DNA of 64,000 nt from Clostridia bacterium (GCA_017503105.1 JAFVTS010000008.1:69453-133452); one strand, 5' to 3'. Positions 8,004 to 53,135 are shown, counted from the stretch's first letter. A program made the numbers and translations. The notes: a model not told the origin generated them from the letters alone.

Positions 8004-8028
8004 AAAACTTTTTTAAAAAAGTTGAAAA
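8004..8028. repeat. Left copy of the 25-bp flanking direct repeat (att/target duplication)
   Basis: AAAACTTTTTTAAAAAAGTTGAAAA, identical to 53111-53135. Contains the 18-bp perfect palindrome AACTTTTTTAAAAAAGTT. Confidence 0.8.
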
Positions 8029-8051
8029 GTCAAGGGGTTTGTGCAAAAAAG
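8029..8051. repeat. Left sub-terminal inverted repeat of the prophage
   Basis: GTCAAGGGGTTTGTGCAAAAAAG aligns with the reverse complement of 53086-53108 at positions 1-3, 10, 12-19 and 21 (GTC ... T.TGTGCAAA). Confidence 0.5.
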
Positions 8052-8110
8052 TGTGAAAAAATGCAAAAAAATTTTTCAAAAGGCGCAAAAAGCCCGTTTT
8101 CAGACCATTT

Positions 8111-9154
8111 TTAGGCTGTTTGCAGGCTGTTTAGGTGGGCTTCAAACAGATCGGCGGAAGAGTACCAGTCGAAAATTCCTCGTGGATAATGGTTAATCCA
8201 GTTCTGTAATTTCCGAATATCAGCAGGGGTTACCTTGTCAAAATTGCATCCTTTCGGGTAGTGGCGGCGGACTAATTTATTCTGATTCTCATTCGATCCG
8301 CGTTCCCACGAAGAATAAGGATGGCAGTAATAGGTCTTTGTGCGCACCCTTTTTCCTGATTTGCTGGTTTCAATGCCGAGGACATCCGCAAACTCCGAGC
8401 CGTTGTCAACGGTAATGGTCTTAAAGAGTATGCGGAAAAGAGCCGAGCCGTATTCCTTCTCGATGCTGTTCATAGCCTTAACCACGCTGTCGGCGGTCTT
8501 GTCTTTCATTTTTCGTATTATTTCAAAACGCGTAAGGCGCTCTGTCAGAACAAGCAGAGTGCCTTTTGTGCCTTTTGCTCCCTCCACGCAGTCCATCTCC
8601 CAATGACCGAATGAAACGCGCGCATTGATTTCCTCTGGGCGCTTTTCGATGCTCGTGCCGCGCTGGGGCTTGGCGGCTCTGACTTTTCTGTGCTTATGTT
8701 CTTTTTTGTTTCTCTTTACAGGTAAATCTTGATTTGTAAGAGTAAGAAATACACCTTGCTCTATGTATCTATATAGAGTTTGCTTGCATACCGTGGTCTT
8801 AAATTCTATACCCTTTGTCTTGATCTCTCCGAGGACAGCCGCAGGAGAATACTTCTCGACGCGGATCATGTACTCGATATATTCTGCGTAGGCTCTATCG
8901 TTGCCGATCTTCAAACCTGCGCCTTTCGCCCGTAGGTGATCCTGCTTTTTCTTTTCGGATATATCAGGGCTGTATCTGATCTCCGTGGTGTAATCGCTGT
9001 TCAGATGCTCATACTGACCGCGTTTGAGTTCGCGGTATATGGTCGTGAAGTGTACGCCCAGTTCCTCTGCCATTCTCTGCGGAGAGATACCCACCTTCTG
9101 CCACGCGGCGATTTTCAGTCTATCATCCCAAGTTAATGTTTTGTAATGCCTCAT
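8111..9154 (-). CDS. IS30-family DDE transposase (candidate phage integrase)
   Basis: 347 aa from the ATG after AAAAAGGAGG. N-terminal HTH (LGVHFTTIYRELKRG) and DDE triad context HWEMD / VDNGSEF / SWERGSNENQNKLVRR. Confidence 0.85.
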   Translation of the reverse strand: MRHYKTLTWDDRLKIAAWQKVGISPQRMAEELGVHFTTIYRELKRGQYEHLNSDYTTEIRYSPDISEKKKQDHLRAKGAGLKIGNDRAYAEYIEYMIRVEKYSPAAVLGEIKTKGIEFKTTVCKQTLYRYIEQGVFLTLTNQDLPVKRNKKEHKHRKVRAAKPQRGTSIEKRPEEINARVSFGHWEMDCVEGAKGTKGTLLVLTERLTRFEIIRKMKDKTADSVVKAMNSIEKEYGSALFRILFKTITVDNGSEFADVLGIETSKSGKRVRTKTYYCHPYSSWERGSNENQNKLVRRHYPKGCNFDKVTPADIRKLQNWINHYPRGIFDWYSSADLFEAHLNSLQTA

Positions 9155-9185
9155 ATCAATATCCTCCTTTTTCCGAGCGAAACAC

Positions 9186-9220
9186 AAAGAGGGCTACCCA
9201 CACCGAGTATAGCCCTCTTT
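9186..9220 (-). terminator. Hairpin/terminator between the RHH gene and the transposase gene
   Basis: Stem AAAGAGGGCTA/TAGCCCTCTTT with a 13-nt loop, immediately after the RHH stop codon on the minus strand. Confidence 0.5.
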
Positions 9221-9223
9221 CAA

Positions 9224-9415
9224 TTATTCAGCCAAAAAGTTCTCAATCGCCCTTTTTATGACCTGCGCCTGCGGCTTGCCCGTGTCGGCGCATTTTCTCT
9301 TGAAAGCCTCCGCCATTTCCTTCGGTATGGAAGCGCGGACGACCTCGTATGTCTTTTGGTTATACCGCGCCTTAACTGCCGTCGATGTCTTTGTTTTTCT
9401 CTTCTGGTTTTCCAT
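9224..9415 (-). CDS. Ribbon-helix-helix (CopG/Arc-like) DNA-binding protein
   Basis: 63 aa with a basic N-terminus, then a beta strand (YEVVRASIP) followed by two helices (EMAEAFKRKCA, PQAQVIKRAIENFL). Has its own consensus promoter. Confidence 0.6.
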   Translation of the reverse strand: MENQKRKTKTSTAVKARYNQKTYEVVRASIPKEMAEAFKRKCADTGKPQAQVIKRAIENFLAE

Positions 9416-9442
9416 AACCTTTGCCCCTTTCGGTTTTTCTTA

Positions 9443-9471
9443 ATTATAACATACTACGCCCAGTATGTCAA
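9443..9471 (-). promoter_or_regulatory. Consensus sigma-A promoter driving the RHH gene (and possibly the transposase)
   Basis: Minus strand reads TTGACA, 17 nt, TATAAT, ~25 nt upstream of the RHH RBS. Confidence 0.6.
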
Positions 9472-9514
9472 GAGGCTTTGAAGGAAAATTTTGCTGTTTT
9501 TTGCGGTTTAGTTA

Positions 9515-9543
9515 TTGAAAAACGCGGCATATTATGATATAAT
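9515..9543 (+). promoter_or_regulatory. Strong plus-strand promoter, divergent from the RHH promoter
   Basis: TTGAAA, 17 nt, TATAAT with an extended -10 (TGATATAAT). Confidence 0.6.
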
Positions 9544-9549
9544 ATACGC

Positions 9550-9740
9550 ACCACACAAAATTTTATATTTTTTGCGCTGTTAGAAGTGCCGCATTTTTAT
9601 TTATTTTTGGTAAAAATGCAGGCTCTCTTTTTCGCATTTCTAATAGTGCAGAAAATTTTGTGTGGTAACAAAAACAGGGCTTGCGTTTTTCGGTGCGTAC
9701 AGCCTTGCGCTTGTACGCACTTTTTATTTTGCGAAAAGGA
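9550..9740 (+). ncRNA. Structured leader or small RNA (nested 115-nt hairpin plus intrinsic terminator)
   Basis: P1 9551-9564/9652-9665 (14 bp perfect), P2 ~9573-9589/9634-9650 (17 bp including G.U pairs), P3 9591-9599/9611-9619 (9 bp). A terminator follows at 9703-9740. Begins ~7 nt after the -10 box. Confidence 0.4.
9703..9740 (+). terminator. Intrinsic terminator immediately upstream of the RBS of ORF 9749
   Basis: Stem GTGCGTACA/TGTACGCAC followed by TTTTTATTTT. Confidence 0.6.
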
Positions 9741-9748
9741 GAGCGAGT

Positions 9749-10084
9749 ATGAAAAAATATATTATACCAGCAGTTATTTGTATAGCGCTTTGTCTGGCTT
9801 CGGTAGTATCTCTTATTGTTTGCTCTATATCCTCTGATTATGCGGCAGATCATTACAGCGTAACTCGTAGATATACCATAAACGGAACGCTGGAGGGATG
9901 TGGCGAAATGGACTGCAAATATTGTCGAGGCAGGGATGATGGATCGGATGCGCACAGTTTTGTCTATTATCGAACGATAAACGACCTGTTCATGGGATCT
10001 GTGTGTATTGCCGTAGTAACCGCCGCAGGAGCGGCAGGAATCGGGATCGCCTACCTTGTCAAAAAGAAAAAGAGGTCTATCTGA
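9749..10084 (+). CDS. Small Cys-rich membrane/surface protein (lysogenic-conversion or exclusion candidate)
   Basis: 111 aa from the ATG after AAAAGGAGAG. N-terminal signal/TM, Cys-rich middle (CGEMDCKYC), C-terminal TM plus KKKKRS. Confidence 0.55.
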   Translation: MKKYIIPAVICIALCLASVVSLIVCSISSDYAADHYSVTRRYTINGTLEGCGEMDCKYCRGRDDGSDAHSFVYYRTINDLFMGSVCIAVVTAAGAAGIGIAYLVKKKKRSI

Positions 10085-10140
10085 TTTTTCGCTCTCTGAC
10101 CGACCAACCGAGCGCGCACGCGCGGTCAGACTAACAGACA

Positions 10141-10190
10141 AATTGTTTTAATTTGTTTTTGTATTTTGTTTTGTTTTAGTTTTGTTTTTA
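10141..10190. repeat. Phased T-tract (TTGTTTT-type) block, probably intrinsically bent DNA
   Basis: T4-5 tracts start at about 10146, 10156, 10164, 10174 and 10185, spaced roughly 10-11 bp apart. Confidence 0.4.
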
Positions 10191-10272
10191 TTTGCATAAC
10201 TTTGCATTGCATTTGCAAAGCAAACTCTCTGCATTTGCATTGCTTTTGGATTGCATTTGCATACAGTTTGCA
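10191..10272 (+). promoter_or_regulatory. Helically phased TTTGCA operator-like array
   Basis: TTTGCA at 10191, 10201, 10212, 10234, 10256 and 10267 (spacings 10, 11, 22, 22, 11). Exact decamer TGCATTTGCA at 10208, 10230 and 10252 (22-bp period). Confidence 0.45.
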
Positions 10273-10293
10273 AGGACAAAAAGGAGGTATTTT

Positions 10294-10479
10294 ATGGCTG
10301 TAATATCGTCGCTTTTGTCTGCCGCCGTAGCCTTCTATATAGGTTATGTTATGGCGAAAGAGCATTACAATCCGCATATAGATTATGAGAAAGTGATACG
10401 CGACAAGGACGCCACTATTAAGGAATTGCGCGGCAAAATATACGATCTGGAGGCGGAGCGCCAGAAAACAAAGCGGTAA
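10294..10479 (+). CDS. Small single-pass membrane protein with a coiled-coil tail
   Basis: 61 aa from the ATG after AAAGGAGG. TM segment VISSLLSAAVAFYIGYV followed by a charged helix. Confidence 0.5.
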   Translation: MAVISSLLSAAVAFYIGYVMAKEHYNPHIDYEKVIRDKDATIKELRGKIYDLEAERQKTKR

Positions 10480-10506
10480 GGACACAAGATCCCTACCGCT
10501 TATTTT

Positions 10507-11843: not shown

Positions 11844-11846
11844 AGG

Positions 11847-12575: not shown

Positions 12576-12590
12576 ATCCTTTTACTCCTT

Positions 12591-13049: not shown

Positions 13050-13058
13050 AGCCTACCC

Positions 13059-13253: not shown

Positions 13254-13274
13254 GATAATATCCTCCTGTATTTG

Positions 13275-14327
13275 TTAGGTAGTCAGAGGTATGCCGTTTG
13301 TGTGAGCATACCAAGACATAAATCGTTTTGCGCGACCTTTGGATATAATCGGTTTTATGTGTTCCAGATAATACTTCTTGAAATTGATCCGTTTCGTCCA
13401 GCCCGTATAAGAGAGGAAACGCGTTACCTGCCGCACACGCATACCGAATTGTTTTATTTTCCGAACAGCGCGCGTCAGCGAGTAAAACAGTTTCTTTCGC
13501 AAGATCGTATATCCTTTATAAAATCGGTATCCGACAAAATCTATCGGGCGCGAGTACGCCTTCCATATCTGCCAGTCGCCTTTGAAATGCAGGTGTTCTT
13601 TGCGCAAAGTGCCTTCCAACAAAAGCCGCGCCTTGTGCAGTTTCCTCTTGTTGGAATCAAGAAAAACCACATCGTCAACATACCGCACATAATGCTTGAT
13701 CTTCACCTTTTGCTTTACTTCGTGATCGAATTGCTGGAGGTAAAAATTTGAGAAGCCTTGCGAGGTATAATATCCAATAGGCAAGCCGCTTCCGCCGCTA
13801 TCCAGAATACCGTCTATGAGGTACAGCACCTTTGCGTCCTTTATGACGCGGCGGAATTTTTGTTTTAGCAGTTCCGTGTCAACCGATTCAAAGAAGTGGT
13901 GTATGTCCGCCTTCAGCACATACTTGATCTTGGGATCTTTCTTTTGAAATTTCTCAATGGCTTTCTTTGCGGCTATGCCGCCTCTACCTTTGACCGATCC
14001 ACAGCAATATCTATCCATACCGCGATTGATGATAGGATCTATCACCTGCATTAAAGCCCAATGCACAATCTGGTCGGGAAAGAATTGTGGTACTTTGATA
14101 TGGCGAATCTTCTTGCGCTCCCGTCGGGTTTTCTCAATAGGCGGCGCAAACTGAAAATTGCCGCTTTCCAGCATTTTCTGGATTCGCTTTACAAATTTTT
14201 CGGGGTGTTCGTGACACTCCAAGACGATACCGCGCCGATTTTTCTTGTTTTTCGTCGCGTTCTTGATCGCCCGTAATAGATTTTCTTCCGATATGACTTT
14301 CTCGAAAAGGAATCCTACTCGTTTCAT
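13275..14327 (-). CDS. Diversity-generating retroelement reverse transcriptase
   Basis: 350 aa with YxDD box RYVDDVVF and the DGR-type motif LPIGYYTSQGFSN. A TR/VR pair lies immediately upstream. Confidence 0.9.
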   Translation of the reverse strand: MKRVGFLFEKVISEENLLRAIKNATKNKKNRRGIVLECHEHPEKFVKRIQKMLESGNFQFAPPIEKTRRERKKIRHIKVPQFFPDQIVHWALMQVIDPIINRGMDRYCCGSVKGRGGIAAKKAIEKFQKKDPKIKYVLKADIHHFFESVDTELLKQKFRRVIKDAKVLYLIDGILDSGGSGLPIGYYTSQGFSNFYLQQFDHEVKQKVKIKHYVRYVDDVVFLDSNKRKLHKARLLLEGTLRKEHLHFKGDWQIWKAYSRPIDFVGYRFYKGYTILRKKLFYSLTRAVRKIKQFGMRVRQVTRFLSYTGWTKRINFKKYYLEHIKPIISKGRAKRFMSWYAHTNGIPLTT

Positions 14328-14460
14328 AGCGTCCTTTCTGTAAAGAGTTTCTTTGTTGCTACCTCATGGTGTTTCAATGCCGAAGCCCTACTAAACCATA
14401 CTCTTTGCGGTTATTTTCTGCCAAGTGGCAAAGGAAATGCGATCCCTAACAAAATCTTGC

Positions 14461-14574
14461 AACAAATTCGCCCACCGATGTTCGAGTTCGCGTTGGAAGC
14501 CCCATTGTTCCCGTTCCAGTTCCAAAGACCAGCGTTCGCGTCGTTATTCCAGTTCCCACCGACGATCAACACGG
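14461..14574 (-). repeat. DGR template repeat (TR)
   Basis: 114 bp, matches the VR at 103/114 positions. All 11 differences are at TR adenines on the coding strand. Rich in AAC codons. Confidence 0.9.
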
Positions 14575-14609
14575 CAATCATCGGATCGCATTCCCTTATA
14601 TAAAATTTC

Positions 14610-15014
14610 TTATTTCTGCATTGTGCCGAGGACGCCGCGCTCTGCACGATCCTCGACGCGCTTGTTCATCCACAAAAGCGCTTCCTCAATGTGAGTAATA
14701 GCAAGGGAGTTTTCCCTTGTTGCATACTCGCCCTGATTAAACGCTTTGAGGCGATCTCTGACGATTTCCAAGAGATCCGTGTCAAGAACGCCGTGGATGG
14801 CGTCAGGAGTGTTCCGAGCGCCGTGCTGGAATCGAATATCAAGCAAGGCGTCGGCAGGGGTACAGTCGGGTGCATCCTCGCAAATATCCATGCAAGGAGT
14901 ACCAGCAGGCACTACAACATAACGATGCTTACCGTTGCCTGCGCCCACTTCGTCGCTCACATACACATCGTTGAGGTTGTTTCTTTTCTGAATGGTGTTG
15001 AGTTTCTTAAACAT
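14610..15014 (-). CDS. DGR-associated accessory ORF in the Avd position, family not recognised
   Basis: 134 aa from the ATG after GGAGGA. Sits between the target gene and the TR. C-terminal motif AITHIEEALLWMNKRVEDRAERGV. Confidence 0.6.
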   Translation of the reverse strand: MFKKLNTIQKRNNLNDVYVSDEVGAGNGKHRYVVVPAGTPCMDICEDAPDCTPADALLDIRFQHGARNTPDAIHGVLDTDLLEIVRDRLKAFNQGEYATRENSLAITHIEEALLWMNKRVEDRAERGVLGTMQK

Positions 15015-15055
15015 TGTTTTATCCTCCAAAATAATTGATTTAGGGTTTTGTTATA

Positions 15056-15075
15056 ACGGGGGAAAAATCCCCCGT
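15056..15075 (-). other. GC hairpin just 3' of the VR (IMH-associated hairpin/cruciform candidate)
   Basis: 8-bp stem ACGGGGGA/TCCCCCGT with a 4-nt loop, inside a GC-rich stretch that is absent downstream of the TR. Confidence 0.6.
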
Positions 15076-15083
15076 GCGCCCCC

Positions 15084-16163
15084 TTAAAGAGGCTTATAAC
15101 AAAGACGCCCACCGATGTTCGAGGCCGCGTTGGAAGCCCCAATGTTCCCGCTCCAGTACCAAAGACCAGCGTTCGCGTCGCTATTCCAGCGCCCACCGAC
15201 GAACAACACGGTTCCCGTGTCGGCTACATAGTAGTAATCGCTGTAATAGGTGGTACTGCCGCCACCTGCAACCGTGGTATAGCCGAGCAGAGGCATCTTC
15301 TCAAAAGGCGTAATGACAGAAGCATATCCACCAGACATACATCTGTCGCCCATATAGAAGTACGGTGCATCCACCTTGGCGGATTCATACGCAGTCGGAT
15401 CGGTGCAGATAAAGACTTTTTCCGTAGAGAAGGAAATGCCGTCGCACCATGTCCAAGTGTTGCCCCACGGGTTTTCGATGCCGCGATACTTGCAGGCGTG
15501 GTAGCCGTCGGTATTGCAGGTTTCGCAACCGTCCGCGTGATCGCTGTTTGCAGAGCCAGAGGGCGTTTTCACAGCGTCGGTATGACCTGTAATGAGGGCG
15601 GCGGTGTTATCGCCTGCCGTCCAGCCCTTCATGATGCTCTGGGAGTTCGTGGTGGCAAACTCGATCATAAACAACTGTTTGAGGATCGCGTCAATAAGAA
15701 AATCGTACTGCTGGTATCCCTCTCCGTTGGCTTTACAGCCGTTACGGAAATTGCCGATATTGATGTTTACGAGTACGGTCTGTCCGCCCTTGGAATATAC
15801 ACGAGAGGACGATCCAGAGCCTTCGTATTTACCGACAAGCACATAGTCGATCTCGTTGCCCTTGCCGTCGATAAACAGCGTGGAAAAGCCGTCGTAACGA
15901 CAGCCCGAAATCTGGTACTTGTATGTGCCGTTTCCGTTTTTGGTGACCTTGGTGTAGAATTTCGGAATCCTGATAAAGACATTCCCAAATTCGTCCGTGA
16001 CTTCGTGCATCTCGCTCCACGGGTAGCAGTTGTTGAAATCGCTTGAAATCTCACTTGCCCCGATGGAGTAAGAAAGCCCCACGGCGGCGTCTGTTCTGGT
16101 GAGCGTCGGATTTGACTGCCCGACGCCATCCACGCCGTAAATTTTTGTTTTTTCAAGTAACAT
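15084..16163 (-). CDS. DGR target protein, putative receptor-binding tail protein with a C-type-lectin-like variable C-terminus
   Basis: 359 aa. C-terminus GGRWNSDANAGLWYWSGNIGASNAASNIGGR is typical of Mtd/FGE-like DGR targets. Follows the tail-fibre gene. Confidence 0.8.
   Translation of the reverse strand: MLLEKTKIYGVDGVGQSNPTLTRTDAAVGLSYSIGASEISSDFNNCYPWSEMHEVTDEFGNVFIRIPKFYTKVTKNGNGTYKYQISGCRYDGFSTLFIDGKGNEIDYVLVGKYEGSGSSSRVYSKGGQTVLVNINIGNFRNGCKANGEGYQQYDFLIDAILKQLFMIEFATTNSQSIMKGWTAGDNTAALITGHTDAVKTPSGSANSDHADGCETCNTDGYHACKYRGIENPWGNTWTWCDGISFSTEKVFICTDPTAYESAKVDAPYFYMGDRCMSGGYASVITPFEKMPLLGYTTVAGGGSTTYYSDYYYVADTGTVLFVGGRWNSDANAGLWYWSGNIGASNAASNIGGRLCYKPL
15098..15211 (-). repeat. DGR variable repeat (VR) at the 3' end of the target gene
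   Basis: Same comparison as for the TR. Substitutions are N to A, I, S, Y, S and R, I to F, I to L, and one silent change. Confidence 0.9.
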
Positions 16164-16180
16164 AAGAATATGTCCTCCTG

Positions 16181-34285: not shown

Positions 34286-34300
34286 AAAAGCCTCCTGATT

Positions 34301-37300
34301 TTATCCCACATACTTTGCATACATTTTGTCAAGATACTCCTGATAGGTGTTGCAACCAGTAGAGGATTTTCTGCGCGCCCATTCCGTGCGCGTCATGATA
34401 TTGGAATAACCTGCATCCGCCGCGTCCTGATAAGAAGTCCATTTAGGATTTGCTTTCGCCGCCGTTCCTGCGCTGTTTGCCGACGCCGTGGAAGTTGTAT
34501 CTCCGCCTCCAAAGAAGAGGTTGTAGAGGTTGTTGTAATGGTCGGTATAACTTCCAGAGCGCTTCTGGATTTTGAATACTCGGTTATCTTTCTTGATGTA
34601 GATAGTTCCTTGATAGCCGAACACAGTTCCGTCGGACAGATCGGACGCGACTTCCTTAATGTTTGTGTCGTTAATCTCGCCACCAGATTCGATGCGGTAC
34701 TTTGTGCCGTTGCAAATAACGGAGAAATTGTTTCCTGCTTCTGCGAGGTCGTCCGAGCCAAAGAAGAGGAACGAGCCATCGTTGTTAAATTTAACACTTT
34801 TGGTAATAGGCGTATAAAGGCTTCTATATACCGCGCGCAGAGCGCTCTTTGTCGCCTCGCTACACCATTTGCTGTTGCAGATCTTGTCAAGTTCGACCTT
34901 TGCCGCGCTCTTGTTGAGAAGCGCCGTGCCGTCGTTGTTGTAGAAGGTGCTTGCGCTGGTGTCGATTGCGTTATTCCACTTGGCTTTCAGATCGTCATAC
35001 TGTGCCTGCGAAATCTTGCCGTCGGCGTAAGCCTTATCAATGGCATCGGTGTCGGCGTAGCCGTAAGAAATATCCTCGGCAAAACTGTTGTAATTGCTTT
35101 CTTGGATATTCTCGATCTGTGCCTTGCCTTGCTCTTCGGTGATCGCGCCACTCTGGACGGCATCCTCGATATAGCCGATATTGTCACCAGTACCAGCAGA
35201 GAGTTCCGCATTTGCCGCCGCCTGACGCTTCTGCTCGTAATCGTTCGCCGCATTGACGAGAGAATTTGTCTGCTCTTCGGAAAGACCGTACTCCTGCGCG
35301 AGTTGTCGCAACTGATCGGCGGTATAAGAGCCAGAGTTTGCACCAGCCAAAAACTCGGTGTACGCGGCTCTTGCGTAGGAGGTTTCTTCCTCCGCCTTTG
35401 CCGCCGCCTCGTCGGCTTTCTGTTGACGGTATGCGCCGATGGCGTTGTCGTTGTTGAGCATATTTTCTCTGTACGACATATCGGCATTGAATTTGCCAGC
35501 GTCCGCCGCCTGATTTGCCGCCAGAGTATCCGCACGAGCCGCCGCCTCTGCATCCGCAACATTCTTGGAGTAAGAGGAATCCGCCGCATACTTGTTCTCG
35601 TTGTATGCCTGATCCGCTTCGTACTTGGCGTTGCGTTCGTTGGTGTGGGCTTCATAGTCCATGGCGCTCTTCTGGGCGTCTGCGTTCGCTTTGTTGGTGG
35701 CGTATGTGGTATCAATCTCATATACCCGATCCGCGTACTGGCTCTCGGCGTTGTAGGTGTTTTCACGGTGCGCCGCGTCCGCCTCTGCCTTCGACTGCTT
35801 TTCCGCACTCTCGGCGGCGTACTTGCTATCCTCCAGAGATTGATCTGCCGCAAGTTTATTGCTCTGGTATGTGGTGTCAACCTCATACATATTTTGCTTG
35901 TATTGAGATTCAGCGTTATACTGATTTTGGAGATGGTCGGCGTCAGCCTGTGCCTTTGCGCTTCTCTCGGCGCTTTCGGCGGCATGTTTACCTTCAGCAA
36001 GCGCCTGATCGGCGGCAGTCTTGTTGCCCTGATAGGTCGTATCAATCTCGTACATATTCTGGCTGTACTGGGATTGTGCATTATAGACATTCTCCTGATG
36101 CGCCGCCTCGGCATTGGTCGCCGTCTGGCGTCTGGCGCTATCGGCAGAGTGCTTGCTATCTTCGAGTGCCTGATCCGCAGAGAGTTTGTTCTTCTGGTAG
36201 GAAAGGTCGAGATCGTACATTCTATCCGCGTACTGCGATTCCGCCGTGTGCTTGTTCTGGAGGTAGTCGGTGTCGGCTTGGAGTTTCGCCTGACCTTCCA
36301 CATAGTCCGCATCACGCTTCACAGCCGCCGCCTGTGCGTTTGCCTGCTGGGTTTCCGCTCTCTGCTGGGCGTATGCCTGCTGATTGATATAATCGCCGTA
36401 TCCGCTTCCAGTCAAGCCCATACCAGCCATAGCCTCGGCGTTTGCACCGTAGGAGGCTTTGTTCTGCTCGTAAGAGGAACGCGCGTCCACGACGCTACGC
36501 TCCCTCTCGACATCGGCGCTGGTGTACGCCTGCTGTCTTTGGAGTTCCGCCGCCTCGTAAACCTTTTCCTGCATCTCCTTTGACATAGAAAGCAGAAGGT
36601 CGCGCTGTTCTGCCGCCATAGCCTCGCCAGTCGCCTTTTGCTGATTGATCGCGTCAATCACAGACTGGTATTGCTTTGTGGCGTGGAGAATATCGGCGTT
36701 GTACTGTTCCTCTGCCGCCGCGAGAACGGCATTGCGCTGACTTTCAGACATAGACAAGAGAAGATCCCTCTGTTCGGTTGCAAGTGCTTCACCTGCCGCC
36801 CTCTGCGCATTGATAGAATCAATAAGCGTCTGGTACTGCTGTTCAGCGTAGGCAATATCCGCCGCACGCTGTTCCTCTGCCGCCGCATAGATCGTGCTTC
36901 TCTGGGATTCCGACATAGAGAGAAGGAGATCCCTCTGCTCCTGCGCCAACGCTTCACCAGACAATTTCTGCGCGTTGATTGCCTCAATGAGAGCGCCGTA
37001 CTGCTTCTCGGCTTGTGCAATGTCAGCCGCGCGCTTTTCCTCGGCGTATGCGTACACGGCGTTGCGCTGTTCCTCGGACATGGAAAGAAGAGCCTGCTTC
37101 TGTTCCTCTGCCAGAGCCATTCCAGAGTTTTTCTGTGCGTTGATGGATTCGATCAGCGTGTCATACTGCTGTTGAGAGTAATTCAGATCAGCCATGAGTT
37201 GCTGTTCTGCGTTGCTGTAAGCAGAGTTCTTGGCGGTTTCTGCCGCACCGTAGAGAAGATCCTTCTGGTTTTGAGCCTCGGCAAGTGCCGCCTGACGCTG

Positions 37301-37909
37301 TGCCTCGATGGCTTCCAGCGTTTTCTGGTTTTGCTCGTTGTAATATTGCGTCTGCTCGTCGTAAATATCCTTATACGCGCCCTCCTGCTTGCGCAGGTAT
37401 TCCTCGTAACTGTCGATAGCCGCCACGCCATCCCACGCAGAGGTAACAGGAGCGGCAGGAGCGGTTTCTGCCGCAGGGGGTGTAGAAGATCCACCGCCAG
37501 AGGCAGGAGCAGACAGAGGCGTTTTCTGGGCGCTTCCGCTGTTGGGATTATACGGCAAGGTTTCCACCTTCGGCTCGTCGCGTCCTACCTGATATTCAAG
37601 CGTTGTGGGCTTTGCCGCGCTACCATCGTTCGGATTATGAACAAGCGTCTGGGGCGCAGACTGACTGCCAGCGATATAATCCCCGTAGGTCATGCCGTTA
37701 TAAGCACCATTTACAGCGCCAGCAACGGCGTTCGCGGCGTTTGCCACACCAGCACCAACAGTCGCGCCGACGACGGGAGCAGAGGGCGTATTTGCACCAT
37801 ACGATGTATCTACCGTAGGCGTAGAATTGCCCTGTGCGTTTTTTACTGCGTTAGCGGCGGCGCTTACAACCGCACCAACGGAATTACGGATTTGATCCCA
37901 TATCGACAT
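34301..37909 (-). CDS. Repeat-rich 1202-aa virion-module protein (coiled-coil; internal/ejection or tape-measure-like candidate)
   Basis: RBS AGGAGGAAAG. Gly/Ala-rich N-terminus, two families of 55-aa tandem repeats and a globular C-terminus. Confidence 0.65.
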   Translation of the reverse strand: MSIWDQIRNSVGAVVSAAANAVKNAQGNSTPTVDTSYGANTPSAPVVGATVGAGVANAANAVAGAVNGAYNGMTYGDYIAGSQSAPQTLVHNPNDGSAAKPTTLEYQVGRDEPKVETLPYNPNSGSAQKTPLSAPASGGGSSTPPAAETAPAAPVTSAWDGVAAIDSYEEYLRKQEGAYKDIYDEQTQYYNEQNQKTLEAIEAQRQAALAEAQNQKDLLYGAAETAKNSAYSNAEQQLMADLNYSQQQYDTLIESINAQKNSGMALAEEQKQALLSMSEEQRNAVYAYAEEKRAADIAQAEKQYGALIEAINAQKLSGEALAQEQRDLLLSMSESQRSTIYAAAEEQRAADIAYAEQQYQTLIDSINAQRAAGEALATEQRDLLLSMSESQRNAVLAAAEEQYNADILHATKQYQSVIDAINQQKATGEAMAAEQRDLLLSMSKEMQEKVYEAAELQRQQAYTSADVERERSVVDARSSYEQNKASYGANAEAMAGMGLTGSGYGDYINQQAYAQQRAETQQANAQAAAVKRDADYVEGQAKLQADTDYLQNKHTAESQYADRMYDLDLSYQKNKLSADQALEDSKHSADSARRQTATNAEAAHQENVYNAQSQYSQNMYEIDTTYQGNKTAADQALAEGKHAAESAERSAKAQADADHLQNQYNAESQYKQNMYEVDTTYQSNKLAADQSLEDSKYAAESAEKQSKAEADAAHRENTYNAESQYADRVYEIDTTYATNKANADAQKSAMDYEAHTNERNAKYEADQAYNENKYAADSSYSKNVADAEAAARADTLAANQAADAGKFNADMSYRENMLNNDNAIGAYRQQKADEAAAKAEEETSYARAAYTEFLAGANSGSYTADQLRQLAQEYGLSEEQTNSLVNAANDYEQKRQAAANAELSAGTGDNIGYIEDAVQSGAITEEQGKAQIENIQESNYNSFAEDISYGYADTDAIDKAYADGKISQAQYDDLKAKWNNAIDTSASTFYNNDGTALLNKSAAKVELDKICNSKWCSEATKSALRAVYRSLYTPITKSVKFNNDGSFLFFGSDDLAEAGNNFSVICNGTKYRIESGGEINDTNIKEVASDLSDGTVFGYQGTIYIKKDNRVFKIQKRSGSYTDHYNNLYNLFFGGGDTTSTASANSAGTAAKANPKWTSYQDAADAGYSNIMTRTEWARRKSSTGCNTYQEYLDKMYAKYVG
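35510..36277 (-). repeat. Coding tandem repeat family B (5 x 55 aa)
   Basis: ESQY/QSQY/DSSY recur at aa 557, 612, 667, 722 and 777. Unit consensus ..H.EN.YNAESQY..NMYE.DTTYQ.NK.AADQ.L. Confidence 0.7.
36500..37192 (-). repeat. Coding tandem repeat family A (4 x 55 aa)
   Basis: INAQK/INAQR/INQQK recur at aa 256, 311, 366 and 421. Unit consensus ..GEALA.EQRDLLLSMSESQR..Y.AAEEQRAADIA.AE.QY..LI. Confidence 0.7.
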
Positions 37910-44420: not shown

Positions 44421-44430
44421 GCCGTCCTCC

Positions 44431-44962: not shown

Positions 44963-45216
44963 GTGTCCTCCTCGTATTTTCCGCAAGCCGTGTCCTTCAG
45001 GCGTATATCCGTCGCTTGGCTTGCGCTTCTTATCCATAAGCCGCATTTATACCACCTGCGGCTCTGGGTGTATGAACATAGGTGTTTGCAGGTCTTACAG
45101 GTTTTACCCTCGGTAATGCCGTATAGTTCCTGCATCCGCTTGTAACGCCTGCCGCCAGACGGCGGCGGATTCGTTACTTCGGTTTCGTTGCCGAAAATGT
45201 CAATCTGTTTGCTCAT
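44959..45216 (-). CDS. Phage hypothetical Cys-containing protein
   Basis: 85 aa from MSKQIDIF. Contains CKTCKHLC...C. ATGA coupling at both ends. Confidence 0.5.
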   Translation of the reverse strand: MSKQIDIFGNETEVTNPPPSGGRRYKRMQELYGITEGKTCKTCKHLCSYTQSRRWYKCGLWIRSASQATDIRLKDTACGKYEEDT

Positions 45217-45782
45217 TCCAGAGCCTCCACATAGCACCAAGACTGGGGAGCGGTTACTTTTCTGCCGCAACCAACTATTTTTGAATCCGACGAAAAATCG
45301 CGTGGCGTGTGCCAAATAGCGTCCTTGCATTTATGGCAGTTTCCATCACAAGGACGGCGAAATTCGCTTAACTCCTTCGGCTTATCGTATATCACAAGGT
45401 CGGTGATGAGCCAACCGTAAGCCTTTTTGTCATAGCCAAGATGCGTTTTTCTTGGTATTCCAAGATAATCAAAAAATTTATCTCTTGACAGGCAAGCATA
45501 GGCTTGTACCCAACCCGAATTACATTGATAAAGTTCCTCTATCTTTTTGCATACAAACTCGCCTATAACTTTGCCTGTTCCATGCAAAAAATCGTACCTT
45601 GTTCCGTCCGTTCTATATCCAACAACGCCGATATGCTCAAATTGTTTATCTTTTGTTTCGTAGATATAGCACTTGAACGGGGAATTAAGTTTCGGTCTGG
45701 TTTTTCTGACCTCAACAGTCTTTTTCCCAGATGCAATCAATTCGCACCATTTAGGCTGTATGCTTATCAATGCGGCTTCCAC
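45213..45782 (-). CDS. ASCH (PUA-like) domain protein
   Basis: 189 aa. N-terminus ALISIQPKWCELIASGKKTVEVRK matches the ASCH pattern. Cys-rich C-terminus. Confidence 0.65.
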   Translation of the reverse strand: MEAALISIQPKWCELIASGKKTVEVRKTRPKLNSPFKCYIYETKDKQFEHIGVVGYRTDGTRYDFLHGTGKVIGEFVCKKIEELYQCNSGWVQAYACLSRDKFFDYLGIPRKTHLGYDKKAYGWLITDLVIYDKPKELSEFRRPCDGNCHKCKDAIWHTPRDFSSDSKIVGCGRKVTAPQSWCYVEALE

Positions 45783-45934
45783 TTCGCCACCTTCTTTCCG
45801 TAAGCCCTCTCCTTGGAATAGTAGTGCTTACAACGGTCTATTTCGTCACCCACACCCTTGAAATAACCCTGATACAGGCAAACGCACTTGTGGATGCAGT
45901 TCCGACATCTCTGCTTGTTGGTAAGTTTTTTCAT
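45767..45934 (-). CDS. Small Cys-rich protein
   Basis: Hand translation MKKLTNKQRCRNCIHKCVCLYQGYFKGVGDEIDRCKHYYSKERAYGKKVAKWKPH (55 aa). ATGA overlap with the radical SAM stop. Confidence 0.35.
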   Translation of the reverse strand: MKKLTNKQRCRNCIHKCVCLYQGYFKGVGDEIDRCKHYYSKERAYGKKVAKWKPH

Positions 45935-46866
45935 AGATCCTCCTTGAAGTAAAATTTATGATCTTCTTTCCACTCCGCCCAGTCGATTTTTCGCCATTGC
46001 CCAGAATAGATATATTTCTGTGCCATAATGTTCTGCCAGCGTTTCGGCATAATGCCTTTGCGCTGATCCTTATAGGGCATACCGTACAGCGTAGCGGATT
46101 TGAGTTTGCGCATAGCGTATATGCGGCGCAGGTCGTCCTCTAAATCCTCTGTCAACAGACAGTAGATAAACAGTTTTGAGTTCGGGATGCCGCGTTCTGC
46201 AAGCAAATCGGCGGCGCGATACATTCCTTCGATCTGCGCCTTTTGATCTACCGAGAAGCGAATGAATTTCTGCCATTTGCACCGTGACAGAATATCTGCT
46301 GTTTCGGGAGTTACCAGAAATACGCTCATTGCTTGGTTGATGTCGAGGCGATAATCTGTTTCCGCCAACTGCCGCAACTGCTCTATGCCGTGAGGATGCG
46401 CGAGAATATTGTTATCCATGAGCGTCAGTTTGTTTGTGTCCGCCCTGACGATCTCCTGCCATGTACGGTAGGGGTATATATCGCCCTCTTTTTGCGGCAC
46501 ATAGCACCACGAGCATTTGTTCGGACAGCCGCGCGTCAGGAAGCCTATGGCGTAATCGCAATCGGGATAGATGGAATAATCGGGGTACATGCGGTCTATC
46601 TCGTCTGGGAGATCCTGAAACAGCCCGTATCCCGTTCCGCCCTTGATTGTGTTCTCTGGGAGGTATGGGTTTTCTGGCACAAAGTCGAAAATCTTGCTGG
46701 AATACACCAGATCGTAAAACTGCGCCTCTATCGGCGAAAACCACACCACTTCGTCGCCTTGCTGTTTGTGCCACGCTGATATTTTCATAAGCGCGTAGTT
46801 TGGAAACTTATTCAGCCGCCCGAAATGTTCCGCATCGGCGTCGTGTAACGCGATCAGTCGGCTCAT
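45931..46866 (-). CDS. Radical SAM enzyme
   Basis: 311 aa with a CxxxCxxC cluster in FLTRGCPNKCSWCYV and a Rossmann-like N-terminal region. Confidence 0.8.
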   Translation of the reverse strand: MSRLIALHDADAEHFGRLNKFPNYALMKISAWHKQQGDEVVWFSPIEAQFYDLVYSSKIFDFVPENPYLPENTIKGGTGYGLFQDLPDEIDRMYPDYSIYPDCDYAIGFLTRGCPNKCSWCYVPQKEGDIYPYRTWQEIVRADTNKLTLMDNNILAHPHGIEQLRQLAETDYRLDINQAMSVFLVTPETADILSRCKWQKFIRFSVDQKAQIEGMYRAADLLAERGIPNSKLFIYCLLTEDLEDDLRRIYAMRKLKSATLYGMPYKDQRKGIMPKRWQNIMAQKYIYSGQWRKIDWAEWKEDHKFYFKEDL

Positions 46867-47039
46867 TTTGTTTTCCTCGCAGATATGTATTCTTTGACGG
46901 TCATACCGCAGAGGCGCGAGGCAAATTTGATAGCCTTTTTCTTATCGCCGTAACTCCCCTTAATGGGCTGTTCGGGGTGTCCTGCTGGGTGTGCGTAATA
47001 CTGACCACCCTTTTCCTTGGATACTTCGTATTCGATCAT
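46863..47039 (-). CDS. Small protein coupled between the methylase and the radical SAM gene
   Basis: Hand translation MIEYEVSKEKGGQYYAHPAGHPEQPIKGSYGDKKKAIKFASRLCGMTVKEYISARKTK (58 aa). ATGA overlaps at both ends. Confidence 0.4.
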   Translation of the reverse strand: MIEYEVSKEKGGQYYAHPAGHPEQPIKGSYGDKKKAIKFASRLCGMTVKEYISARKTK

Positions 47040-47578
47040 ACTTCATTCCCCCAACAATCCCATCCGTCCGCGTACTGACGGGCAAAGAGTTCTATACGGG
47101 GGAGATCGCCAGAAAACTCCACGATCTTCTCCCTGACAATATCGGGCTTCTTGCTGTGTTCCTCTCTGACGGCTTCTACTATGGAGGACACCCCGTTGGA
47201 TACCTTCGGCGCTCTGCCTTTGACGCCAATGAGGCACACTTCTGCATTTGACTTTGTGTACCAGCCAACGCCAAAACAGTACCCCCCCCCCCGTTTATTG
47301 GTTTTCACCCATGTAAATCCGACTGTCTTGTACTCGAATCCCCACGCCTTCATGCAGTTCAGGGCTTCCTGAATCTTCGGGAATGTAGCCCAGAGAAAGA
47401 GGATGCAGTTCTTGTCAGCGAGATCGGCAACAGGAAGGCTCTCTATATCCGCCTGCTCCATTGTAGAGTAATGCGCTTCCGCCGTCGCCTCTATGTTTCC
47501 CATGTTGCGATACTTCCACGGCGGATCTGCGTATATGATCTGGTATTTCTTGTCGGTATTGAAAATGTCAACTTTCAT
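47036..47578 (-). CDS. MT-A70-family N6-adenine methyltransferase
   Basis: 180 aa from the ATG after GGAGGTGG. Catalytic motif IIYADPPWKY. Confidence 0.8.
   Translation of the reverse strand: MKVDIFNTDKKYQIIYADPPWKYRNMGNIEATAEAHYSTMEQADIESLPVADLADKNCILFLWATFPKIQEALNCMKAWGFEYKTVGFTWVKTNKRGGGYCFGVGWYTKSNAEVCLIGVKGRAPKVSNGVSSIVEAVREEHSKKPDIVREKIVEFSGDLPRIELFARQYADGWDCWGNEV
47282..47292. repeat. C11/G11 homopolymer inside the methyltransferase ORF
   Basis: Eleven consecutive C on the plus strand, read as CGG GGG GGG GGG (RGGG) in the gene. The tract is in frame as given. Confidence 0.8.
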
Positions 47579-47774
47579 CGTCGCCACCTCCCAAGAAAGC
47601 CATAAACTCGGTAAAATGCTCTTCGCATAGATTGATCGTTCTATCGTTGCGCCAGCCCTTCGGGGAAGTAACAAGATTTTCGTGCTTGTACTTCTGGATC
47701 ACAAGGCGCGGATGCGCTTTATCGTCAGCAATCTTTCTGCCGCACTTATCGCATAAAATCTGCTTGATAACCAT
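47568..47774 (-). CDS. Phage hypothetical protein
   Basis: 68 aa containing CDKCG...C..H. Confidence 0.5.
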   Translation of the reverse strand: MVIKQILCDKCGRKIADDKAHPRLVIQKYKHENLVTSPKGWRNDRTINLCEEHFTEFMAFLGGGDDES

Positions 47775-47783
47775 ATAGCCTCC

Positions 47784-48155: not shown

Positions 48156-48171
48156 AACCTCAACCATCTTT

Positions 48172-49205: not shown

Positions 49206-49234
49206 GCGAAGCCTCCTGTTTTAATCAGATTTCG

Positions 49235-50173: not shown

Positions 50174-50185
50174 AATACTCTCTCC

Positions 50186-51058: not shown

Positions 51059-51084
51059 AATCTGTCCTCCAAAATATAAAATTT

Positions 51085-51744
51085 TTATTCTCTGCCGAAA
51101 CGCGGCAGGATCAGCGGCGGTCTTTCCTTGCGCTGAACATATCCCCAAAAATCATGCTCTTTGCAGTAAAGGTATTTGAGGTCGTCCAGCAGGGCGTTCC
51201 GCTCGTATCGGTAATGCTTGGTAATGATCTCCAAATCCTCGGTGTAGAGCAGTTTTAACTGTGCTTTCAGCACATTAAACGACCTGCCCGTTACGACGAG
51301 TTGGTGTAAGAGTTGCACATAGTAATAATCGGGTACGCGCTTATTCCACTTTTCAAGAGCGCTCTTTCGGTGGATCTCTCCCGTTTTGCCCTCATAGACA
51401 CCCAGCGCACCAGAGGACAGTTCCTCCAGTTCGCCGTCCAGAGAGGCAAACATAAAGCCGCGCCTATACACAATGGTTTTATCACTCCACCCTCTGTACT
51501 GGGGATGATCTAAACAGAACAGGCGGAATAAAGGATCTTCTGCCTCTGTTCCGTACTTGACAACGGGATTCTCCGATATGTCGTCAGGCTCTCGGATGCC
51601 GACCTTTTCCTCCCAGACCTGCACATTTGTCTTGAAAGGGGAAAGCCCCAGAATGGCGGCGGCGTCCGATCCGCCGATACCAGTTTTTCTATGTTCGAGC
51701 CATTCAGGGGTGTTATGTTGAATTTTCAGGATTTCGAGGCTCAT
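51085..51744 (-). CDS. YqaJ-like (lambda Exo-type) exonuclease
   Basis: 219 aa with motif GIGGSDAAAILGLSPFKT. Confidence 0.8.
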   Translation of the reverse strand: MSLEILKIQHNTPEWLEHRKTGIGGSDAAAILGLSPFKTNVQVWEEKVGIREPDDISENPVVKYGTEAEDPLFRLFCLDHPQYRGWSDKTIVYRRGFMFASLDGELEELSSGALGVYEGKTGEIHRKSALEKWNKRVPDYYYVQLLHQLVVTGRSFNVLKAQLKLLYTEDLEIITKHYRYERNALLDDLKYLYCKEHDFWGYVQRKERPPLILPRFGRE

Positions 51745-51899
51745 TTTGCCGCGCACCTTGCGTGATAGACTTCCCAGAGCGCCGCCACAATTTCCTCGCG
51801 CTCTTCCTCGGTATGGTTATCGTCGAGGTACATACAAGCCTCGTCCACGGTGAGATCCAGCAGTTCCTCTGCGATCTGCTTTGCGGTCTTATCTCTCAT
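51741..51899 (-). CDS. Small acidic protein
   Basis: 52 aa from the ATG after GGAGGG. Confidence 0.4.
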   Translation of the reverse strand: MRDKTAKQIAEELLDLTVDEACMYLDDNHTEEEREEIVAALWEVYHARCAAK

Positions 51900-52200
51900 G
51901 GTTGCCCTCCGTTTCTGCATCTGCTTCGTCAAGAACGGCGTATATCTCTTTGATCTTCTCGGCGAGTGCCTGACGCGTAGGCGAGGCATCGCAGTCGTCC
52001 AGAAATTCCTCCAGCGACTTTACAATATCCCTTGCGTCGCTGATGGGGTTATACTTCTTGAAACAAACACCGCCCTGAACGGTAAACAGTTCCAGAGGAT
52101 CGCCCTCGTTAATGCGAAGTGTCCGTCTGATTTCCTTGGGGATAACCACGCGCCCCAGATCGTCAATTCTTCTGATGATACCTGTGCTTTTCATTTTCAT
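51889..52200 (-). CDS. AbrB/SpoVT-family DNA-binding protein
   Basis: 103 aa with the swapped-hairpin motif GRVVIPKEIRRTLRINEGDPLE. Confidence 0.8.
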   Translation of the reverse strand: MKMKSTGIIRRIDDLGRVVIPKEIRRTLRINEGDPLELFTVQGGVCFKKYNPISDARDIVKSLEEFLDDCDASPTRQALAEKIKEIYAVLDEADAETEGNHER

Positions 52201-52730
52201 TCTCCTTGCTTATTCAAATATTCCACCGCCGCCACAAGCGTCGAAGTGTGCCAGAAAACTCTGTGATCGTTGCCGTCCATTCCCTTGACGAAATGAACGA
52301 TAGTAAAAGAAGTATCGCCGTCCTTCTTGGAGATATTGCCGTTTGGGTGTCGCCACTCGGTAGTATAGCCGAGCGCTGTGCTGTATCTTCTCTCCGTGAG
52401 GGGAACATCGTTGATCGTTACCTGCCGCTCCTGAATGTTCCTCTTCTTGTTGCGCGCATAGGCTTCGTATGCCTCTGCGTTCATTTTGCGTCTGGACGCG
52501 GTTGCAAGGTCGCGCAGTTCGGGAAATTCCTCCTGCACCTTGCGGCGCGCACGGGTGATAGATTCAAAGTTAGGTCTGTGCGGATTCATAACCAACTGAT
52601 CGAAGGGAACGCTGGTATCAACGCCGAGCCGATGCAATACGCCGATAATCAGCGCGTTATCGTTCTTGCGCGCGGCTTCGTTGGAACGCAGTTCTGCGTG
52701 TACGCAGGCTGTAACTTGCTTCATGTTCAT
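52197..52730 (-). CDS. Phage hypothetical protein
   Basis: 177 aa, second gene of the early operon. Confidence 0.55.
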   Translation of the reverse strand: MNMKQVTACVHAELRSNEAARKNDNALIIGVLHRLGVDTSVPFDQLVMNPHRPNFESITRARRKVQEEFPELRDLATASRRKMNAEAYEAYARNKKRNIQERQVTINDVPLTERRYSTALGYTTEWRHPNGNISKKDGDTSFTIVHFVKGMDGNDHRVFWHTSTLVAAVEYLNKQGE

Positions 52731-52748
52731 GGTCTGTCCTCCTGATTT

Positions 52749-53006
52749 TTAATTATTTTCTTTGGGCTTGTCCTTTGCCTTGCCACGGCGCTTCATACTT
52801 TCAAGAAAAGCCTTCTGCGCCGCCTCGGCAGAATACTTCTCTCTGCCGTTTTTATCCAGATCGCCGCAACTCCCTCGCGCCAGTTCTCTGTAAATCGTTA
52901 CGAGATGTACGCCGAGTGTGTCCGCGATTGCCGCGAGAGAAGCGCCCGAAACATACAAGGCTTCAATCTTCTTTCGATCATCGAAAGTCAAATATCGGCA
53001 TTTCAT
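52749..53006 (-). CDS. Stand-alone HTH protein paralogous to the N-terminus of the IS30-family transposase
   Basis: 85 aa from the ATG 7 nt after AAAGGAG. LTFDDRKKIEAL...LGVHLVTIYRELARG aligns with LTWDDRLKIAAW...LGVHFTTIYRELKRG of ORF 8111-9154. Confidence 0.65.
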   Translation of the reverse strand: MKCRYLTFDDRKKIEALYVSGASLAAIADTLGVHLVTIYRELARGSCGDLDKNGREKYSAEAAQKAFLESMKRRGKAKDKPKENN

Positions 53007-53031
53007 TTCCATACTCCTTTCCAAAAAGAAT

Positions 53032-53057
53032 GTGCCAGAGGTTGCAACCTCTGGCAC
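53032..53057. promoter_or_regulatory. 26-bp perfect palindrome in the early leader
   Basis: GTGCCAGAGGTTG/CAACCTCTGGCAC, between the early -10 box and the HTH gene RBS. Confidence 0.55.
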
Positions 53058-53064
53058 TATGGTT

Positions 53065-53104
53065 TGTGCAAATTGAGGTCAAAACTCTCTTTGCACATAT
53101 TATA
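53065..53104 (-). promoter_or_regulatory. Early promoter -10 box with an overlapping inverted repeat (operator candidate)
   Basis: Minus-strand TATAAT (53099-53104), immediately followed by TGTGCAAA, 17 nt, TTTGCACA. Confidence 0.45.
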
Positions 53105-53108
53105 CGAC
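53086..53108. repeat. Right sub-terminal inverted repeat of the prophage
   Basis: The reverse complement reads GTCGTATAATATGTGCAAAGAGA. See 8029-8051. Confidence 0.5.
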
Positions 53109-53110
53109 TT

Positions 53111-53135
53111 AAAACTTTTTTAAAAAAGTTGAAAA
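53111..53135. repeat. Right copy of the 25-bp flanking direct repeat
   Basis: Identical to 8004-8028. Confidence 0.8.

Follow-up and report, generated by a model that had tools for sequence, protein, structure and literature searches.

A 45-kb tailed prophage of a gut Clostridia bacterium that is probably a single giant IS30-family element and may insert at a fixed distance from promoters

The genome of a gut Clostridia bacterium contains a prophage related to phage Lagaffe and to the so-called 'IScream' phages. We have analyzed it in a 64-kb stretch of DNA, the window, to which all positions refer. We consider it very probable that positions 8023-53114 correspond to a temperate tailed phage of the Lagaffe/IScream type, whose whole 45-kb genome is one giant element of the IS30 family of insertion sequences (IS). 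The IS30-family transposase coded at one end is presumed to be the integrase and excisase of the phage. A second proposal is made with much less confidence, with slightly better than even odds of being real as well as new: phage-borne IS30 transposases of the Lagaffe/IScream type would be promoter-directed integrases. This covers insertion 11 bp upstream of the -35 box of sigma-70 promoters, a preferred orientation, a 15-bp target-site duplication and a split promoter which is restored on excision. The features discussed are listed in Table 1.

The prophage is found between two exact copies of a 25-mer, AAAACTTTTTTAAAAAAGTTGAAAA, at 8004-8028 and 53111-53135. It has no other copy in the window, even with three mismatches, and shuffling produces no such repeat (0 in 100 shuffles). 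A perfect 18-bp palindrome, AACTTTTTTAAAAAAGTT, sits inside it. A first-pass annotation of this DNA had described this repeat, with phage genes inside and host genes outside; the repeat search and the shuffles agree with it, as do the profile matches on both sides. It had also taken the 25-mer as the target-site duplication and the palindrome as the target, which our results do not sustain.

The true borders are set by circular forms of the phage. We have found these by exact-protein look-ups of the transposase and of an HTH_38 protein of 85 amino acids (aa) in metagenome contigs. In at least 15 contigs of 44.6–46.8 kb the genes for these two proteins are adjacent: The transposase stop codon is followed by about 198 bp and then by the HTH_38 start codon. 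The pair is found at varied contig positions, and such a varied permutation of unit-length contigs is as expected of circular or concatemeric genomes. The junction reads ...GCACAAACCCCTTGACTTTTCA-NN-TTTTAAGTCGTATAATATGTGCAAAGAG... (core form ...CTTGACTTTTCA-NN-TTTTAAGTCG...) and is constant apart from NN, for which we have found TT, AA, GC, AG, GA, TA and CT. The circular contigs contain no host DNA beyond this 2-bp spacer and no copy of the 15-mer or the 25-mer. The termini of the phage are set in this way as TGAAAAGTCAAG... and ...CGACTTAAAA, and the mobile unit extends from 8023 (TGAAAAGTCAAGG...) to 53114, with 45,092 bp. The first-pass annotation had suggested looking for a circular junction: It does exist in the assemblies, with the ends 2 bp apart, but the 25-mer is not part of it.

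The target-site duplication has 15 bp, not 25 bp, because the circle junctions keep TGAAAA and AAAA as constant phage sequence. The 25-mer is composed of the 15-bp duplication and of 4 + 6 bp of phage termini which are equal to the neighbouring host bases: AAAA (8004-8007 and 53111-53114) and TGAAAA (8023-8028 and 53130-53135). The transposase of a second lineage is 57% identical to ours, and there the duplication, CGCAATCCAGGCGAT, likewise has 15 bp; it is not palindromic (contigs L025 and L175, both from one sample).

The two ends of the unit, End A on the transposase side and End B on the side of the HTH_38 gene, are imperfect inverted repeats. They are identical in 16 of 30 positions in the window (T...AAGTC-N8-TGTGCAAA) and in 19 of 30 in two relatives. 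The repeat core AAGTC-N8-TGTGCAAA has exact matches only at the termini, one copy being inverted relative to the other. Imperfect terminal inverted repeats with 2 bp between them are a signature of IS30; the variable spacer is also present in about six further lineages, one case (L051) being ambiguous. Just inside End A, at 8042-8081, there are three A-rich repeats with a 10-bp phasing, TGCAAAAAAG / TGTGAAAAAA / TGCAAAAAAA, which could be extra protein-binding sites or bent DNA.

The transposase clearly belongs to the IS30 family, as had been proposed earlier: It reaches 238.7 bits with the NCBIfam model NF033563 (IS30 family transposase, cut-off 80) and E = 4e-135 with phrog_4646, 'transposase'. 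Among Pfam models, HTH_38 is above its cut-off and rve just under it (31.1, cut-off 32.6). The stop codon of the gene is 88 bp from the left end at 8023. There is one copy of the gene in the window, and the repeat search of the window detects no inverted repeats bracketing this gene alone. No Phage_integrase, Resolvase or Recombinase match is found in the approximately 45 open reading frames (ORFs) scanned, and the intergenic gaps in the prophage are too short to conceal an integrase gene. The absence of a tyrosine or serine recombinase, an earlier claim, is borne out by these scans.

The protein coded at the other end is 40% identical to residues 7-78 of the transposase, has no DDE domain, and matches phrog_11420, a DNA-binding protein. 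In IScream phages, its gene has a counterpart in the 'truncated IS30'. When viral contigs are searched with the HTH_38 protein of the window, no relative is found, and six HTH_38 proteins are too divergent for an alignment-based search. The small ribbon-helix-helix (RHH) gene next to the transposase gene is kept in all circular copies, and its product is a candidate regulator.

This arrangement is found in many other phages. In IMG/VR, 60 contigs encode transposases 36–72% identical to that of the window. In most of them the transposase gene stops 60–200 bp before the contig end; these ends contain a conserved ...CTTGACTTTTCA or ...CTCTTGACATTTACC, followed by diverging flanks. Other relatives are circular forms with the same layout. 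In phage Lagaffe the transposase gene adjoins the end junction, and in phage Saumur it lies at the end of the record. Contigs L002, L005, L010, L016, L039 and L042 were considered as insertions in transposase genes; they really contain the transposase and the downstream HTH paralogue, that is, circle junctions. In another IMG/VR contig (L011, End A flank) the conserved end runs into the middle of an IS30-type helix-turn-helix (HTH) coding sequence (...GKSYREIARLLGRSPSTIS...), which may be an insertion into or beside another IS30-family gene.

The phage of the window is also found at three other host sites. One of them is next to an ABC transporter gene (L156). Another one is next to asnS, in a Clostridia metagenome-assembled genome from roe-deer caecum (L172), found by a merged End A/End B pattern search in GTDB genomes, which returned two short contigs. 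The third is an End A junction at a different site (L170). The other GTDB pattern match, L171, is a partial look-alike without phage genes and was dropped. The circle junctions, the terminal repeats and the presence of the phage at four or more host sites all agree with the view, already put forward in the first-pass annotation, that the whole phage is an IS30-type transposable unit.

In addition, the phage is found at its own tRNA-Arg site in five further independent metagenome assemblies (L202-L205 and L207), which share identical ClpC or cation efflux proteins with the window. All contigs which share one of these two proteins and reach the site carry the prophage, which appears to be fixed in this host lineage. 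The protein index has no entry for the left flank protein (308 aa), which gives no lead to an empty site. Relatives of the phage RecT protein (43–80% identical) are found in 80 IMG/VR contigs (L061-L140), none of which has transposase or HTH_38 genes within 6 kb, which suggests that the integration module is exchanged between phage backbones.

The insertion sites have a common feature. In the window, L156 and L172, TTGACA is found exactly 26 bp from the phage end beyond End B, with TATAAT or TAAAAT 17 bp later. We have analyzed 20 End B flanks: The sources include these three sites, JGI metagenomes (11 flanks of the second lineage) and IMG/VR (5 flanks of a lineage nearer to that of the window). 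In 11 of the first 15 flanks there are at least four of six matches to TTGACA at an offset of 25–26 bp, compared with 8.6% at other offsets (P = 2e-9). In the whole set of 20, a full promoter (8 or more matches of 12) with the -35 box at 25–27 bp is found in 14, compared with a background of 6.8% (P = 1e-12). No promoter is found at that distance in five End A flanks of the second lineage or in that of L170; therefore, the orientation is biased in these two lineages. A separate observation concerns two lineages, seen by an End A flank in L013 and by an End B flank in L198, which in different samples are next to the same host promoter, TTTACA-17-TATAAT: One phage is 25 bp from the -35 box, the other one 57 bp.

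The proximity to promoters might be due to selection or bias: Only insertions in harmless, promoter-rich and AT-rich intergenic DNA would survive. The flanks of the insertion sites are indeed AT-rich, the insertions we observe are survivors, and 6 of the 20 flanks have no promoter at the set distance. Nevertheless, we find this explanation unlikely. Survival would not fix the -35 box at offsets of 25, 26 and 27 bp, which account for 5, 11 and 4 cases, compared with 0–2 at other offsets in the same flanks, and the three sites of the phage of the window itself are all at exactly 26 bp.

A different target was favored in the first-pass annotation: An IS30-type unit, 8029-53110, would be directed to the 18-bp palindrome and duplicate all 25 bp, as does IS1630. 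The 25-mer is certainly an exact repeat with a perfect palindrome, and long duplications in the IS30 family are known for IS1630, with 16–26 bp (PMC3317919, citing Calcutt 1999). We now give this reading very little chance. Every circle junction retains TTTTCA and TTTT and only 2 bp vary, so that 10 of the 25 bp are phage termini, and the insertion with both ends in L025 and L175 has a duplication of 15 bp. The targets in this insertion, in L156 and in L172 are not palindromic: L156, L172 and L175 have one of seven complementary pairs. Besides the window, only L198, L199 and L213 among the 20 presumed targets have a palindrome of at least 10 bp or a large self-complementarity, while a promoter at a fixed distance is common to most. 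The palindrome looks like a feature of the upstream region of the tRNA promoter, not like a recognition signal. The analogy with IS1630 stands only for the long duplications; an inverted-repeat target is not general. The idea that a target must mimic the phage ends was also considered, and L156, L172 and the second lineage do not bear it out (flanks compared by eye, unscored).

Two other explanations deal with the transposase gene itself: An ordinary IS30-family IS could just happen to have inserted at a prophage border, or the prophage could be a composite transposon between two IS copies. IS30-family elements do enter phages, for example IS983 in bIL311 and an IS in phiPV83, and a 2025 paper describes IScream phages as 'sandwiched' by IS30 elements, like a composite transposon (PMC12823448). 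Both possibilities are highly improbable here. As implied in the first-pass annotation, the gene is not a nested ordinary IS: It is single-copy, without bracketing inverted repeats, and its terminal position is kept in most of the 60 IMG/VR contigs and in the deposited phages. In pairwise comparisons, the transposase is 50–72% identical to phage-end homologues (Lagaffe, Saumur, IMG/VR), but only 28–36% identical to homologues annotated within insertion sequences. The repeat core is limited to the two phage ends, with no inner repeats, and therefore there is no composite-transposon structure; the right-end gene, moreover, codes for 85 aa without a DDE domain. Finally, a recombinase that escaped recognition could carry out classical att x att recombination, the common core being the 25-mer or the 15-mer. 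This would fit an exact direct repeat beside a tRNA operon, where prophages are typically found, in a phage with many ORFs without assigned function, but it can practically be discarded: The circular forms lack both repeats and hence an attP core, the phage is found at no fewer than four unrelated sites with unrelated flanks, and no ORF scanned has a recombinase domain.

A promoter is also found in the phage itself when its ends are joined. TTGACT from End A, the 17 bp TTTCA-NN-TTTTAAGTCG, and TATAAT from End B match a sigma-70 promoter, directed into the HTH_38 gene and the early operon. On the minus strand, the -35 half is at 8028-8033 and the -10 half at 53099-53104. In the integrated state, the host only gives CTTTTT at the -35 position. 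Eight lineages, including Lagaffe, have such junction promoters, with 9–11 of 12 matches, which are the top promoter in each post-transposase region. Those of other lineages are TTGACT-17-TAGAAT, TTGACT-17-TACAAT, TTGACA-17-TAAAAT, TTGACA-17-TAACAT, TTGACT-17-TATCAT and TTGACT-17-CATAAT, while Lagaffe has TTGACT-16-TAATAT. For IS911 and IS2 it is established that a promoter is assembled at the circle junction, and IS30 likewise has this feature. Between the -10 half and the HTH_38 start codon there is a hairpin with a perfect 11-bp stem, GTGCCAGAGGTTGCAACCTCTGGCAC, at 53032-53057, and after it, on the minus strand, a run of T: The hairpin could be an attenuator, a terminator or an operator of the early operon.

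These features suggest the following mechanism. The transposase would join the phage ends, by excision or copy-out, and bind the junction. It would then cut the target with a 15-bp stagger, 11 and 26 bp upstream of the -35 box. Since 15 bp are duplicated, the host promoter would keep its native 26 upstream bp and stay functional. Integration would split the junction promoter and help to silence the early operon in the lysogen, and re-joining of the ends would restore it. The promoter might be recognized by the HTH domain of the transposase, by the small HTH_38 protein or by RNA polymerase.

Several points weigh against this proposal. We have found no empty site for the host of the window, and the empty-site pattern is absent from JGI metagenomes. 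The 15-bp length is supported by only two insertions in which both ends are seen. Circles are deduced from assemblies, not from reads, and we infer catalysis, promoter activity and recognition from the sequence. The 10 extra matching bases in the window may be due either to chance in AT-rich DNA or to a local preference; the other sites of this phage, judged by eye, have no comparable match. As regards the target, the End B flanks lacking a promoter at the expected distance have been mentioned above. In L012, L044, L045 and L047 the promoter is on the End A side, at offsets of 25–27 bp according to the placement of End A, and in L003 it is found at an offset of 22. Orientation and spacing are not universal.

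Table 1. Position of the main features of the prophage and of its insertion site in the window.
Feature	Position	Strand	Basis
Terminator hairpin of upstream host gene	7940..7971	.	Inverted repeat I4 flanked by A and T runs
Target-site duplication (15 bp), left copy, CTTTTTTAAAAAAGT	8008..8022	.	25-mer minus phage TGAAAA, minus host AAAA
Whole mobile unit, temperate tailed-phage genome	8023..53114	- (almost all genes)	Circular junctions in at least 15 metagenome contigs and phage genes
End A, terminal inverted repeat, transposase side, TGAAAAGTCAAGGGGTTTGTGCAAA...	8023..8052	+	Conserved terminal sequence; flanks diverge beyond
IS30-family DDE transposase, 347 aa, HTH_38 and rve-type core, outward-facing	8111..9154	-	NF033563, Pfam, phrog_4646
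Small RHH (Arc/CopG-like) protein, directly upstream of transposase gene	9224..9415	-	Pfam RHH_1, 29.1 bits; Arc-like repressor PHROGs
HTH_38-only paralogue of transposase N-terminus, 85 aa, inward-facing, first gene after End B	52749..53006	-	Pfam HTH_38, E = 6.5e-14
End B, terminal inverted repeat, HTH-gene side, TTTTAAGTCGTATAATATGTGCAAA (inward reading)	53085..53114	-	Circle junctions, repeat comparison
Target-site duplication (15 bp), right copy, CTTTTTTAAAAAAGT	53115..53129	.	25-mer and circle junctions
Predicted host sigma-70 promoter of tRNA-Arg/tRNA-His operon, TTGACA-17-TATAAT (12/12)	53141..53169	+	-35 starts 26 bp from phage end (15 + 11)

The genes between the 25-mer copies are of phage type, nearly all of them on the minus strand. 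Packaging and structural genes code for TerS, TerL, a portal protein, a Mu gpT-like major head protein, tail and tail-fibre proteins. Replication and recombination genes are also found (SSB, RecT, YqaJ and a replication-initiation-like protein), as well as a reverse transcriptase of a diversity-generating retroelement (DGR), a VRR-NUC nuclease, a radical SAM enzyme and an MT-A70 methylase. A polyvalent protein of 3352 aa has ART-PolyVal (194 bits) and PBECR3 nuclease domains. It adjoins a 1202-aa protein without assigned function, both being located in 24227-37909, between the portal and head genes; from this position, they may be injected or virion-associated.

The DGR is complete (13275-16163). 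The reverse transcriptase (13275-14327, minus strand) is accompanied by a template repeat (14438-14574) and a variable repeat (15075-15211), located where a tail protein gene (15084-16163, phrog_5302) has its 3' end. Of the mismatches between the repeats, the first 11 all correspond to A in the template. A 139-aa ORF between these parts (14610-15029) has a sub-threshold Acb2/Tad1-hairpin match; from its position, our guess would be a DGR accessory protein. The early region contains a MazE/AbrB-like protein, the radical SAM enzyme, the MT-A70 methylase and an ASCH-domain protein (45213-45782, 45931-47674 and 51889-52200), and the radical SAM, MT-A70 and ASCH group may be a DNA-modification or anti-restriction module. 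Two small genes (9749-10084 and 10294-10479, with 111 and 61–80 aa) are on the plus strand, opposed to all other phage genes, and adjoin the RHH and transposase genes. They are called in related assemblies, have no family matches and are candidates for a lysogeny-control module.

On the left side, the host genes code for an HflK/band-7 protein, NfeD and a cation efflux protein; on the right side we find tRNA-Arg(tct), tRNA-His, an MBL-fold protein and ClpC. The insertion point is located between the terminator hairpin of the upstream host gene and the tRNA promoter.

The idea of phages which use an IS30 transposase is already published. Cornuault et al. (Microbiome 2018, PMC5883640) described the Faecalibacterium/Blautia phage Lagaffe with an 'IS30 TPase' as integrase; this phage is flanked by direct repeats, has a DGR and makes virions. 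Prophage clusters with IS30-family transposases were listed by Jiang et al. in 2017 (bioRxiv 10.1101/214213). Wirbel, Hickey et al. (Nature 2025, PMC12823448) coined the name 'IScream phages': They found 22 in their own data, list 1,780 candidates from a gut virus catalogue, and showed DNase-protected circles of a Blautia hansenii IScream phage. The text searched, supplements aside, does not mention a target-site duplication, an inverted repeat, a promoter, an insertion site or an integration site. The searched text on Lagaffe and IScream phages is silent on the sequences of the ends, on a 2-bp spacer or a 15-bp duplication, and on any junction promoter or target rule; the 2018 paper mentions nothing but direct repeats, and our literature search has found no later paper on the IScream mechanism. 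The exact ends, 2-bp spacer, 15-bp duplication, single set of terminal repeats, junction promoter and fixed promoter distance appear to go beyond the published accounts.

Annotation pipelines based on integrases and att sites overlook IScream-type phages or misplace their borders. With exact ends, a 15-bp duplication and a junction motif, such prophages and their free forms can be called in metagenomes with base accuracy. The two variable bases would record the last integration site if, as in IS circles, they come from the donor flank. If a generic promoter target rule holds true, this would be the first case of promoter-directed integration both among IS30-family enzymes and among tailed phages. 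Such a rule would help to explain the presence of these phages in hosts from different families, for example Lagaffe in Faecalibacterium and Blautia, or the broad-range IScream clusters. The split promoter would be a built-in switch, coupling the integration state to early-gene transcription. A DDE enzyme which places 45 kb at a fixed distance upstream of promoters without disrupting them could also be a tool for the genetics of gut Clostridia.

The closest known systems are Lagaffe and the IScream phages. Like them, our prophage resides in a Clostridia host, carries structural and packaging genes of phage type and lacks a tyrosine or serine integrase. One end codes for a full-length, outward-facing IS30 transposase, the opposite one for an HTH-only 'truncated IS30' which faces inward. 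A DGR reverse transcriptase is also shared, and probably circular forms as well, which in our case are deduced from assemblies. The Lagaffe transposase ('integrase, IS30 transposase family') is 54.6% identical to ours, and the order transposase, junction, HTH gene is the same. On the other hand, the structural and replication modules are different. The framing of the 2025 paper is similar to a composite transposon, whereas the phage of the window has a single set of terminal repeats.

IS30 of E. coli also codes for a transposase with HTH and DDE parts which passes the family model, between imperfect terminal inverted repeats. Its abutted ends, with a 2-bp spacer, are the presumed active intermediate, and the joined ends contain a promoter. 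The pathway through joined ends, with copy-out/paste-in and a minicircle or (IS30)2 junction, is reviewed in PMC9333248, and a lambda-IS30 chimera (Kiss, Szabo and Olasz 2003) is cited in PMC12823448. The differences are considerable. Our element has 45 kb and a complete phage genome, while IS30 has about 1.2 kb (typical elements have 1–1.3 kb, with only a transposase). The duplication has 15 bp instead of the 2–3 bp of typical members. The junction is followed by an HTH-only paralogue and then by the whole phage genome, with the catalytic gene last. The target is upstream of promoters, compared with a hot-spot consensus or its own inverted repeats for IS30. IS1630 of Mycoplasma fermentans is also an IS30-family case of unusually long duplications, which within this family are known only for IS1630-like members, but our type duplicates 15 bp in both measured cases and its targets are generally not palindromic.

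Other comparisons are more distant. The TnGBS integrative conjugative elements of streptococci insert 15–17 bp upstream of sigma-A promoters (Brochet 2009; PMC3942029). They are also large elements in which a DDE transposase replaces the integrase, with a fixed short distance to promoters. They are conjugative elements and not phages, their transposase belongs to a Mutator-like superfamily and not to the IS30 family, and the distance in our case differs between the two strands (11 and 26 bp): The analogy is only functional. Mu and Mushu are tailed phages which integrate by means of a DDE enzyme, with a target duplication. Mu, however, has replicative transposition, a 5-bp duplication, host DNA packaged at its ends and a MuA-type enzyme, while the phage of the window has an IS30-family enzyme and circular contigs whose only bases beyond the phage are those of the 2-bp spacer.

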